DNA of 64,000 bases from Escherichia phage WPEC6. The DNA is taken from sequence record PV763039.1. The stretch is one strand, 5' to 3'. Position numbers and translations under genes: made by a program. The notes under the pieces were generated by a model. It saw nothing but the letters and a program-made list of their open reading frames with translations, made no database searches and had not been told where the DNA came from. Positions 48,017-49,477 of this stretch are shown here, in pieces (position 1 is the first letter of the stretch; every line of letters starts with the position of its first letter).

Positions 48017-49477
48017 GTGCCAAAAATAGTTACTTGGGAACAATATAAAACAGATATAAAACAAGCTTATCAAGGTAAGTGTTGGACTGTTGTAGATTAT
48101 ATTGAGCCGTGGAACGGCAATAAAACTAAACTTAGATGCATCTGTGCTCTGCACGGAGAATGGAAAACAACAAGCATAAATACCGCTAAACGAGGGAGGG
48201 GTTGTCCAAAATGCTGTAGGGAGATTATAAAGAAAGCAGTATCTATAAACAAATCAAAAACATGGGAGCAACATAAAGAAGAAGTGCAAACCACTTACAA
48301 TCAGGCAGGTAAATCTTGGACTGTTATAGGATGGCACGGAGAATGGAAAGGATGGAATACTAAACTGGTTTGTTGTTGTGCTTTACATGGGGAGTGGAGG
48401 TCTACTTCTATATCTTCTGCGAAAAACGGGAGTGGATGCAGGAAGTGTATGGGAGAAGCAAACAGAGAAAGAACATCGATTGCGTGGGAGAAACATAAAG
48501 AAGAAGTAGAAGAAGCCTATAAAGAAAAACCCTGGATTGTTAGAGGCTATGTGGAACCGTGGAACGGTTCCCGCACTAAGTTGATTTGTGAGTGTAAGGT
48601 TCATGGTCAGTGGTGCACTACCACTGTAAACAGTGCTAAACAAGGAACTGGATGCTACGGTTGTCAAAGAGAAATGACGAAACAAAGGAATACAATGGAG
48701 GATAAGCAACATGTTGAAGATTTTATAAAAGCTTGTCCTGATAATGTAGAGCGTAAATATTATCGTAGCGATAGAGTAGATAGATTAGGTCGTCAGGTTT
48801 ACTGGATTGTAGAATGTCCTATATGTGCAGAGGATGATTATTGTAAAGAAGGCTTATGCGATAATAAATTTGAGATGAAGATGAGTCATTTGAAAAGGGG
48901 TGGCCTTCCTTGCCGTTGTTCTAAATATTATCATTACACTCCTGAACAATGGGCCTACCGTATGACCAAAGCTTGCCAGGAACGAGGGGATCAATTTATA
49001 GGATTCATTGATAAGGTAAGCAATAACAGAAAGTTTAAATATCTGTGTAGGGAGCATGGAGAGCAAACGATCACACCTACCGATTATCTCAATGGGAAAG
49101 GTTGTCCAAGCTGTAAGAACAGAAATATGCAAGAATTTTACATCAATATTATTCTTGATGAGTACGGAGAAGACACGGGAGCTTACAAGTTGGGGATTGC
49201 AAAGGACAGCGATATCAGGATCAAAGGGCAGAATGCAAACAACAATTACTCTATGCGCCGTATAGCATTGTTCGATCTGCCGTCCTATCAGGCTTGCAGG
49301 GCGTTAGAGAGTAAGCTAAAGTCTAAGACTGATCAGATTCTACCGTCTATTGGCTGTGTAGAACGCTTGCACATGAAAGATGGTCATAGTGAAACCTTCC
49401 TGCGCGAGGATTTGGCTATCGTCTTAAGTGCTATCAACCAAGCAGGTGGAATAATGAGAGAGGAGGAAACATGTTAG
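48017..49477 (+). CDS. Cys-rich protein with four tandem ~75-aa zinc-ribbon-like repeats
   Basis: 486-aa ORF (GTG start); repeat unit W(E)xHKEEVxxxYxxxxWTVxxxxEPWNGxxTKLxCxCxxHGEWxTTSxxxAKxGxGCxKC occurs 4 times. Confidence 0.5.
   Translation: MPKIVTWEQYKTDIKQAYQGKCWTVVDYIEPWNGNKTKLRCICALHGEWKTTSINTAKRGRGCPKCCREIIKKAVSINKSKTWEQHKEEVQTTYNQAGKSWTVIGWHGEWKGWNTKLVCCCALHGEWRSTSISSAKNGSGCRKCMGEANRERTSIAWEKHKEEVEEAYKEKPWIVRGYVEPWNGSRTKLICECKVHGQWCTTTVNSAKQGTGCYGCQREMTKQRNTMEDKQHVEDFIKACPDNVERKYYRSDRVDRLGRQVYWIVECPICAEDDYCKEGLCDNKFEMKMSHLKRGGLPCRCSKYYHYTPEQWAYRMTKACQERGDQFIGFIDKVSNNRKFKYLCREHGEQTITPTDYLNGKGCPSCKNRNMQEFYINIILDEYGEDTGAYKLGIAKDSDIRIKGQNANNNYSMRRIALFDLPSYQACRALESKLKSKTDQILPSIGCVERLHMKDGHSETFLREDLAIVLSAINQAGGIMREEETC

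Follow-up and report, generated by a model that had tools for sequence, protein, structure and literature searches.

The gene at positions 48017..49477 (+ strand) in the Escherichia phage WPEC6 sequence PV763039.1 encodes a 486-aa protein, which is probably (at a probability of about 75%) a free-standing homing endonuclease of the CapR/T5orf172 class carried by a Phapecoctavirus (phAPEC8-like) phage. The protein combines five tandem zinc modules (aa 1-371) with a predicted C-terminal nuclease domain (aa 372-486), and its gene occupies an intergenic cassette that is exchanged or missing in related phages. The initial annotation of the window, the whole stretch of 64,000 nt that was analysed, had described this product as a protein made of four Cys-rich repeats and had suggested a multivalent nucleic-acid or protein binder acting in host takeover or anti-defence. 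We prefer a homing endonuclease to a host-takeover factor because the C-terminal domain has a predicted GIY-YIG fold and the locus behaves as a mobile cassette. The family and its architecture (CapR modules and a T5orf172-like nuclease) are already known from other phages and involve no new principle, and we suggest labelling the gene as a CapR/T5orf172-type (GIY-YIG superfamily) putative homing endonuclease.

The open reading frame had been placed exactly and is a real gene, and the identical frame is annotated by RefSeq in phages ZCKP1 and ESCO13, in both under the name "endonuclease". It begins with GTG and includes a TAG stop codon at 49475-49477. Five nucleotides before the start, a Shine-Dalgarno-like GGGGA (48007..48011, +) can be read directly from the sequence, and a ribosome-binding site is annotated at the equivalent position in ESCO13. 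The protein also matches PHROG 681, "endonuclease", with an E-value of 7.8e-79. Phages WPEC4 and WPEC2 carry the gene at 100% identity, at present annotated as a hypothetical protein. As initially reported, the gene follows an AAA ATPase gene, which lies directly upstream at 46788-47927 (Pfam AAA, E 8.7e-7). A promoter scan of the 89-nt spacer preceding the endonuclease gene found no sigma-70-like promoter, and the G+C content of the gene (0.41) is no different from that of its surroundings (0.38-0.39). The window, which was assigned to Phapecoctavirus (phAPEC8-like), holds no second copy of the CapR-type or nuclease domain, and Phapecoctavirus records have one place each for this gene. An exhaustive representative search showed that the protein family is large, with 1633 clusters at E ≤ 1e-3 and 354 at E ≤ 1e-30. 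The best 150 matches are all close relatives and include no bridge to canonical T5orf172 proteins; NCBIfam gave no match for the protein, and a PDB sequence search with the whole protein found nothing.

The N-terminal part belongs to a named family, contrary to the first reading of the repeat. The whole protein matches the Pfam CapR homology domain (PF21817), which is related to DUF723 and DUF4379, with 96 bits and an E-value of 1.5e-27 over five stretches. Taken singly, four modules score above the curated gathering threshold of 24.2 bits: R2 (aa 76-152, 48242..48472, +) with 24.4, R3 (aa 153-226, 48473..48694, +) with 24.6, R4 (aa 227-306, 48695..48934, +) with 41.7 (E 1.3e-10, the best stretch) and R5 (aa 307-371, 48935..49129, +) with 34.7 bits (E 2e-8). 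R1 (aa 1-75, 48017..48241, +) lies slightly below it at 23.0 bits and shows weak matches to DUF4379 and DUF723. The count of four tandem repeats therefore needs amendment: the repetition is far beyond chance, and the motif W..HKEEV..Y..WTV..EPWNG..TKL.C.C..HGEW..T..G.GC..C is indeed present in the protein, but only R1-R3 show it clearly, which makes three copies, and Pfam counts five modules. Pairwise identity among R1, R2 and R3 is 46-49%, with alignment z-scores of 13-19 against shuffled sequence (R1 against R2 and R3, 47-49% identity and z 17-19; R2 against R1 and R3, z 13-17). R5 belongs to the same type but has diverged (z 4.5-6.9 against R1-R3), whereas direct alignment of R4 with R1-R3 gave no significant similarity (z < 1) and its relatedness is picked up by the Pfam CapR profile only.

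The modules also differ in their putative zinc ligands. R1 (C43, H46, C63, C66), R2 (C121, H124, C141, C144), R3 (C193, H196, C213, C216) and R5 (C344, H347, C363, C366) are CHCC modules of the CapR/DUF4379/DUF723 type with the variant order C-x2-H ... C-x2-C. In R4 the cysteine pattern is reversed to the canonical CapR order (CxxC ... CxC, about 24-26 residues apart), here C267-x2-C270 and C299-x-C301, which lie 28 residues apart and are invariant in 16 relatives, as is an additional C281. All four R5 ligands are invariant, and so are C193, C213 and C216 of R3 among the 16 family members. AlphaFold places the first two ligands in the turn of a beta-hairpin and the other two where a helix begins, which resembles a treble clef. 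Together with the zinc-finger-like ligand sets and weak matches to Pfam DUF4379 ("probable treble clef zinc finger"), this bears out the earlier proposal of zinc-ribbon or treble-clef modules. In CapR, four cysteines are required for DNA binding, and modules of this type also form part of the DNA-binding region in putative T5orf172 homing endonucleases (PMC8096241). By analogy, the modules of the WPEC6 protein would bind zinc and DNA, and aa 1-371 can fairly be called a putative multivalent nucleic-acid binder.

R1 is modelled as alpha-beta-beta-beta-alpha with pLDDT 63-75, and R2 reaches pLDDT 85-90. When the full-length model was compared with the PDB by Foldseek, the hits to proteins with tandem dsRNA-binding domains were weak (best E 7e-4, TM below 0.2), and a single dsRBM was matched at TM 0.26. 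These low-TM matches were taken to reflect no more than a common alpha-beta-beta-beta-alpha topology, and an identification as dsRNA-binding domains was set aside. It is conceivable, though improbable, that the CHCC module represents a zinc-stabilised relative of the dsRNA-binding-domain fold.

These features bear on the initial proposal, taken here to mean a multivalent binder of host nucleic acid or proteins that is built of zinc modules, has no enzymatic activity and acts as an early host-takeover or anti-defence factor. Five tandem zinc modules, a position within a block of small + strand genes adjoining the AAA ATPase, and the weak full-length likeness to tandem dsRNA-binding-domain proteins are all consistent with it. 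Nevertheless, the modules come from a family known in homing endonucleases, and the proposal leaves out the C-terminal GIY-YIG-fold domain with its conserved catalytic-type residues. A PADLOC search for defence systems gave no match for the endonuclease, a weak negative as that library lacks anti-defence factors. The gene is moreover dispensable (absent from phage phiWec190, deleted in EP57), and strongly divergent alleles take its place in other phages, which is not what one would expect of a factor tuned to interact with the host. We consider such a role very improbable, and a homing endonuclease reads better. The match to a characterised domain of known function, which the initial annotation had named as grounds for abandoning its proposal, has essentially been found, although DNA binding by the modules of homing endonucleases still fits half of the original guess.

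The C-terminal residues from about 372 to 486 (49130..49474, +) form a separate, non-repeat domain that had passed unnoticed in the description of a protein made of repeats. Its predicted structure contains the GIY-YIG core of a three-stranded sheet with flanking helices (beta-beta-alpha-beta-alpha), and the residues expected for this fold are found at Y375 in strand 1, R401 in helix 1 and E431 in the helix after strand 3. Y375, K391, G393, R401 and E431, as well as a D455-G456-x-x-E459-T460 motif, are invariant in an alignment of 16 family sequences, and R401 and E431 remain so when 14 more distant relatives are added. E431 aligns with the column of E180 of the ICP1 nuclease Odn, via ICP1 Gp165; E459, in the S-E-T-F motif, was considered as the catalytic Glu and ruled out by the same alignment. 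The second GIY-YIG motif reads K-L-G rather than Y-I-G.

The 486-aa protein has no sequence match to Pfam GIY-YIG, a PDB search with a profile of the C-terminal domain found nothing, and the match to T5orf172 (PF10544) is below the 20-bit gathering threshold (13.8 bits, E 0.09, profile positions 3-86 of 101). The same T5orf172 profile was matched by 10 of 11 relatives, with a best E-value of 0.0023; other alleles of the slot score about 16 bits and ICP1 Gp165 scores 18 bits. An hhalign comparison of the C-terminal profile with three ICP1 T5orf172 domains was marginal (E 0.003, probability 10%), and a comparison with Odn alone gave nothing meaningful. Viral structure neighbours in BFVD bear the names GIY-YIG, T5 Orf172, MUG113 and homing endonuclease, and NCBI lists the relative P0030 as a "GIY-YIG nuclease family protein".

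The closest known counterparts are the putative T5orf172/CapR homing endonucleases of the Vibrio phage ICP1, especially Gp165 (also Gp53, Gp121, Gp130 and Gp174), which have the same architecture of N-terminal tandem CapR-type modules and a C-terminal T5orf172-like nuclease. These ICP1 enzymes are reportedly treated in Netter et al. 2021 and Barth et al. 2023. By BLASTP, aa 175-479 of the WPEC6 protein match Gp165 with an E-value of 1e-29 (29% identity over 327 residues); the matched region spans R3 to R5 plus the nuclease domain. A further match links Gp165 to Gp53 (E 2e-19), which at 23.1 bits is above the Pfam T5orf172 cut-off, and the nuclease domains of Gp165 and Odn share 51% identity, the Odn domain scoring 33.3 bits against T5orf172. 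The 486-aa protein is thus linked through Gp165 to the T5orf172 members Gp53 and Odn by a transitive chain, direct profile-profile comparison being marginal. Gp165 has been described as a putative T5orf172/CapR homing endonuclease (PMC8096241), and 200 of 229 T5orf172 homing endonucleases carry repeated CapR/DUF723/DUF4379 zinc modules (PMC10448857). Like the WPEC6 protein, Gp165 scores below the Pfam T5orf172 cut-off; it has four CapR stretches, and the WPEC6 protein has two extra N-terminal modules relative to it (five in total). The two phages represent different lineages and hosts (Stephanstirmvirinae on E. coli and Mohonavirus on Vibrio), and ICP1 carries several paralogues per genome in contrast to one in the 64-kb window.

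Two other relatives indicate how the two halves of the protein may work. For the origin-directed nuclease Odn (ICP1 Gp88), T5orf172 nuclease activity has been demonstrated and is abolished by the E180A mutation (PMC8263062), and the counterparts of its catalytic-type residues, E431 and R401, are invariant in the WPEC6 family. However, direct sequence similarity between Odn and the C-terminal domain of the WPEC6 protein is marginal, the DNA-binding part of Odn is a RepA_N-like domain (DUF6945) instead of zinc modules, and Odn serves as an anti-satellite weapon and not as a homing element. CapR, the capsid-operon repressor of the Vibrio cholerae satellite PLE that gave PF21817 its name, shares the zinc DNA-binding module, and its CxxC...CxC cysteines are present and invariant in R4. 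CapR resembles only the N-terminal domain of T5orf172/CapR endonucleases and has been interpreted as a domesticated piece of one (PMC8096241), whereas the WPEC6 protein retains the nuclease domain and five modules. A purely CapR-like repressor role is unlikely, since close relatives of the WPEC6 protein all retain the catalytic-type residues, and CapR has no nuclease domain.

Comparison with canonical GIY-YIG enzymes reveals a shared design built from different parts. I-TevI and the Seg proteins of phage T4 are also modular "beads on a string" proteins that include a small zinc finger, and are likewise selfish genes of lytic phages, free-standing or intron-borne. In I-TevI the nuclease is N-terminal, the reverse of the order seen here; the DNA-binding modules of I-TevI and the Seg proteins are of the NUMOD or helix-turn-helix kind in place of CapR-type zinc modules, and their second motif is Y-I-G, in contrast to the K-L-G of the WPEC6 protein, which has no Pfam GIY-YIG match. 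The closest solved structures are the structure-specific GIY-YIG nucleases SLX1 and HIGLE, with sequence identity of only 11-13%. Both act in eukaryotic DNA repair and have other partner domains, and the likeness is limited to the catalytic fold.

The gene occupies a cassette whose limits were determined by junction alignment. On the left, a conserved G+C-rich hairpin, ATGCCCCGCAAGGGGCAT followed by TTCTTAT (47933..47950, +), lies just past the ATPase stop codon, and the boundary falls there, at about position 47950. The hairpin probably acts as a terminator or attenuator ahead of the endonuclease gene: a terminator scan detected its stem as a minus-strand terminator-like site only, and "terminator" is among the features annotated under the match in two relatives. 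It is kept upstream of the 402-aa allele and in the empty site of phiWec190. On the right, the last endonuclease codons (GAG GAG GAA ACA TG..., 49460..49473, +) form the ribosome-binding site of the next gene (49471-49836, +) and overlap its ATG at 49471; the boundary falls at about 49460. It emerges when the junction is aligned to the empty site (ACGGAGGAAAATTATG) and to the other alleles, all of which end in ...EE(T/I)C.

Among 70 related phage records, the 486-aa allele is present in 22, and in most of the others the slot gene is unalignable between flanks that are 94.5-98.6% identical. The alleles examined, of 402, 394 and 332 aa, could not be aligned and lie between flanks that are 96-100% identical in most 200-nt bins. 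phiWec179, phiWec181 and phiWec186 carry a 337-aa allele with about 79% nucleotide identity. The slot is empty in phiWec190, where the hairpin is directly adjacent to the downstream gene, and in EP57 the endonuclease gene has been deleted. An intergenic cassette with presence/absence polymorphism is what characterises a free-standing homing endonuclease gene. The cassette marks a recombination boundary and accounts for the total difference at this slot between otherwise near-identical Phapecoctavirus genomes.

In the homing scheme that these features suggest, the five independently folded modules would jointly read a long asymmetric DNA target, and the GIY-YIG-fold domain would cut nearby using R401 and E431. 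During mixed infection the enzyme would cleave the corresponding site in a phage genome without the cassette, and repair of the break from the cassette-bearing genome would transfer the gene, along with part of its flanks, to the cleaved genome. The carrier would be protected, as insertion of the cassette splits the junction sequence. Recent homing into naive genomes is not directly visible because almost all sequenced Phapecoctavirus genomes have the slot filled and the only clean empty site is that of phiWec190, a divergent relative with flanks only 70-94% identical. In the part of the literature that was covered, no published experiment on any Phapecoctavirus allele was found.

Fixed homing endonuclease genes are expected to degenerate, and the gene could be a decaying, inactive remnant that persists merely until it is deleted, as it has been in EP57; its GTG start and position behind a terminator-like hairpin would suit such a fate. 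Against this, the 486-codon frame is intact in all 22 records, the zinc ligands and nuclease motifs are all preserved, and the gene evolves under purifying selection (pN/pS 0.22 overall) with no non-synonymous change in the nuclease domain, which makes a remnant highly doubtful. The same purifying selection would also suit a domesticated descendant, one that no longer homes and is kept for its benefit to the phage. Such a protein might serve as a nuclease against co-infecting phages or satellites (cf. ICP1 Odn), as a sequence-specific DNA-binding regulator (cf. CapR) or as a promoter of recombination at this genome boundary. Precedents of both kinds have been published in the same family (PMC8096241; PMC8263062), and according to the authors of PMC10448857 homing is indistinguishable from domestication by sequence alone. 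The near-fixation of the slot in Phapecoctavirus could signal an acquired useful function, and 9 of the 12 amino-acid changes between close alleles fall in R1-R2, as expected with retuning of specificity. However, no satellite or defined competitor is known for Phapecoctavirus phages, and the exchange of whole cassettes for unalignable alleles within near-identical flanks, together with the empty site, is typical of selfish turnover and not of a conserved host function. Domestication is therefore the less probable course, though not a negligible one, and a homing endonuclease remains our preferred explanation.

The alleles of the slot differ in module number (3+2, 2+2 and 1+2), those of 332-402 aa having fewer N-terminal modules than the 486-aa allele, and R3 is the first module of the core common to all family alleles. 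Tentatively, and with low confidence, the slot may be seen as an arena of mutually displacing endonuclease alleles, in which one, two or three N-terminal CHCC modules on a constant R4-R5-nuclease core would represent stepwise retargeting. The allele series is a handy natural data set on DNA targeting by tandem zinc modules, and if each module reads a short DNA segment independently, it could be used to derive a modular DNA-recognition code for CapR-type modules. Domains are also shuffled between lineages: in P0013 the N-terminal half is that of one lineage, and the nuclease domain that of the other; both repeat-number variation and domain shuffling have been described in the ICP1 family too.

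The ORF reported at 48017-49477 (+ strand) in the initial annotation was borne out: it encodes 486 aa, begins with GTG and is preceded by a GGGGA Shine-Dalgarno sequence at 48007 (+). Its product has 30 Cys among 486 residues and is covered over its full length by PHROG 681 ("endonuclease", E 7.8e-79); the protein family comprises 1633 cluster representatives at E <= 1e-3. A megablast comparison of 46700-50100 with phage records matched 70 records, almost all of them from Phapecoctavirus (phAPEC8-like, Stephanstirmvirinae), including the Escherichia phages WPEC4 and WPEC2 (100% identity) and the phages ZCKP1, ESCO13 and "nieznany" (96.5-97.7%). 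The RefSeq name of the protein in ZCKP1 (HOT48_gp194) and ESCO13 (HOR21_gp171) is "endonuclease", the ESCO13 protein appears in UniProt as "CapR homology domain-containing protein", and a sister allele in phage SKA64 is labelled "putative homing endonuclease".

The protein had been described as consisting of four tandem Cys-rich repeats of no recognized family. The motif is real and clearly recurs three times in tandem, as R1 (aa 1-75), R2 (aa 76-152) and R3 (aa 153-226), which share 46-49% protein and 60-66% DNA identity in pairwise alignments (z 13-19 against shuffled sequence). There are five modules rather than four: R4 (aa 227-306) has a reversed cysteine pattern (CxxC...CxC) and no similarity to R1-R3 detectable by pairwise alignment, and R5 (aa 307-371) is of the R1-R3 type but has diverged (z-scores 4.5-6.9 against shuffled sequence). 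Nor is the protein made of repeats alone, since the modules fill only aa 1-371 and are followed by a previously overlooked non-repeat domain (aa ~372-486). The repeat corresponds to the CapR homology domain PF21817, which Pfam places on five stretches of the endonuclease (E 1.5e-27, 96 bits, cut-off 24.2). When the modules were scanned singly, R2, R3, R4 and R5 each scored above the CapR cut-off and R1 slightly under it; weak side matches were to DUF4379 ("probable treble clef zinc finger") and DUF723. PF21817 and PF05265 are precomputed on all relatives found in a large protein collection. A further PHROG match of the N-terminal modules is to an HNH endonuclease, so these modules are common to different nuclease classes.

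A full-length AlphaFold model built from a 16-sequence alignment had a mean pLDDT of 83.9 and a pTM of 0.44, the latter indicating flexibly linked domains. In this model every CHCC module is alpha-beta-beta-beta-alpha, with the C-x2-H pair in the turn that connects strands 2 and 3 and the C-x2-C pair beginning the next helix, a predicted treble-clef arrangement judged from secondary structure only. The putative ligands C193/C213/C216, C267/C270/C281/C299/C301 and C344/H347/C363/C366 are invariant across 16 family members. Foldseek PDB matches of the whole model to dsRNA-binding domains were weak, came from tandem-domain proteins and were not relied on. The CapR homology domain was defined from CapR, a repressor that the Vibrio cholerae satellite PLE encodes; CapR no longer bound DNA once its four conserved cysteines were replaced by serine, and putative T5orf172 homing endonucleases of Vibrio phage ICP1 have N-terminal parts related to it (PMC8096241). 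A later survey reported CapR, DUF723 or DUF4379 zinc modules in 200 of the 229 T5orf172 homing endonucleases, frequently with several in a row as "beads on a string", and also described domain swapping and changes in repeat number (PMC10448857).

Modelled separately from a 23-sequence alignment, the C-terminal domain has a beta-beta-alpha-beta-alpha core (pLDDT 93.4). Its predicted viral structure neighbours include proteins named "Homing endonuclease", "GIY-YIG domain-containing", "Bacteriophage T5 Orf172 DNA-binding domain-containing" and "MUG113". The domain is divergent by sequence, scoring 13.8 bits against the T5orf172 cut-off of 20 over profile positions 3-86 of 101; among 11 relatives, ten match T5orf172 and four match MUG113. 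Residues 175-479 align with Gp165 (E 1e-29, tblastn and BLASTP), an ICP1 protein that the CapR paper (PMC8096241) mentions by name. Gp165 in turn matches Gp53 (E 2e-19), which is above the T5orf172 cut-off, and shares 51% identity with Odn (Gp88) over the nuclease domain. Membership of Pfam T5orf172 thus has transitive support only. Purified Odn cleaves DNA and its E180A mutant does not (PMC8263062). Counted along the alignment, the E180 position is E431 of the phage WPEC6 protein, located in the helix after strand 3. E431 is invariant in the family alignment, as are Y375, K391, G393 and R401. Fold and motifs thus give good support for placing the domain in the GIY-YIG superfamily. The original observation is partly confirmed: the repeats stand, but as five modules joined to a nuclease domain. 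The original interpretation, a multivalent nucleic-acid or protein binder, is partly supported.

The place of this gene between the ATPase gene and the next gene is variable. The 486-aa allele is carried by 22 records, whereas in most others only the flanks match (94.5-98.6% identity) and a different gene fills the slot; the alleles inspected there are of 402 aa in "anhysbys", 394 aa in phAPEC8 and "nepoznato", and 332 aa in EF1-1. The phages phiWec179/181/186, which match at ~79% identity, carry a 337-aa allele. These alleles are of the same protein family as the 486-aa allele, with nuclease domains only 39% identical to that of the window protein, and have module counts of 2+2 or 1+2 compared with 3+2. 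In phiWec190 the slot is empty, and the ATPase gene, hairpin and downstream gene adjoin. In Escherichia phage vB_EcoM_EP57 (L004, 1589-3094) the cassette, the last ATPase codons with the stop, and the hairpin are all deleted. The EP57 ATPase is annotated as an in-frame fusion to a downstream 121-aa ORF; the short length of this record (130 kb) and its fragmentation into tiny ORFs cast doubt on the quality of the sequence.

In a 200-nt sliding comparison the flanking bins were mostly 96-100% identical regardless of allele, and alignment was lost completely exactly between ~47950 and ~49450. The left cassette boundary is a conserved hairpin (47933-47950), and the right one lies in the last codons of the endonuclease gene. 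These codons also serve the next gene as its ribosome-binding site, and the ATG of that gene, at 49471, overlaps the endonuclease stop codon. The locus behaves as a mobile cassette. One relative, P0013, is a mosaic whose N-terminal half resembles that of the "anhysbys" allele and whose nuclease domain resembles that of the window protein. Comparing the window with ZCKP1 gave a pN/pS of 0.22 from only 25 substitutions; of the 12 amino-acid changes, nine are in R1-R2, and the nuclease domain has none. Another relative, P0002 (669 aa, 22-kb metagenome contig), contains two complete units of zinc modules and nuclease domain joined head to tail within a single ORF. This is either a sequencing error or a tandem insertion in which the first of two endonuclease genes lost its stop codon.

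We propose that the tandem zinc modules would bind a long asymmetric DNA site and the C-terminal domain would cut near it. During co-infection, a break in a genome that does not carry this cassette would be repaired from the carrier genome, copying the cassette across; the insertion, by splitting the junction sequence, would protect the carrier. The GTG start, the upstream hairpin and a spacer in which no sigma-70-like promoter was found suggest low expression by read-through, which would fit a potentially toxic nuclease. Sequence alone cannot tell active homing from a domesticated function, as the authors of PMC10448857 also point out. Among known systems, the ICP1 T5orf172/CapR endonucleases are the nearest relatives. 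Odn illustrates what the nuclease domain is capable of, and CapR is thought to be a domesticated DNA-binding fragment, whereas the window protein keeps its nuclease domain. In the classical GIY-YIG analogues, I-TevI and the Seg proteins, the domain order is reversed. No published work on Phapecoctavirus homing endonucleases was found by title or abstract. Nothing here exceeds the published picture: the gene represents an unremarkable type of selfish phage nuclease gene that has been catalogued before, and the five-module form and slot allele series are details of a known kind.

In the 200-nt comparison, bin 49900-50099 is only 78-79% identical to ZCKP1, ESCO13 and phAPEC8 and 96-99% to "nepoznato", "anhysbys" and EF1-1, and in bin 50100-50299 ESCO13 alone falls to 77%. 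This short mosaic block (49900-50300) is independent of the endonuclease allele carried and represents a second recombination boundary immediately 3' of the cassette. The stretch 51700-54000 is a patchwork of ~72-92-nt blocks, each in 2-3 direct and inverted copies; ordinary Phapecoctavirus genomes contain 96-100% identical matches to each block at dispersed sites, 9-14 per genome. The stretch is contiguous in no record (best WPEC4, 44% coverage in five pieces) and resembles a chimeric concatenation of read-length fragments; the block pattern therefore probably reflects an assembly artefact. WPEC records are 155-161 kb long compared with ~150 kb in relatives. In WPEC1 (PV659873.1, hit H84) only the endonuclease 3' half and downstream genes match (query 2176-3401, 99.8% identity), and the matches lie in nine separate places, which suggests that WPEC records are rearranged or mis-assembled. 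The 180-aa protein encoded at 50025-50567 (+) has a NADAR domain (PF08719, E 1.1e-35); its homologue is labelled "GTP cyclohydrolase II" in several phage records, probably a carried-over mis-annotation. A 163-aa ORF without a Pfam match (44120-44611, +) is 100% identical in phAPEC8 and absent from ZCKP1, ESCO13 and "nepoznato", and could represent a further small gene of mobile or accessory type.
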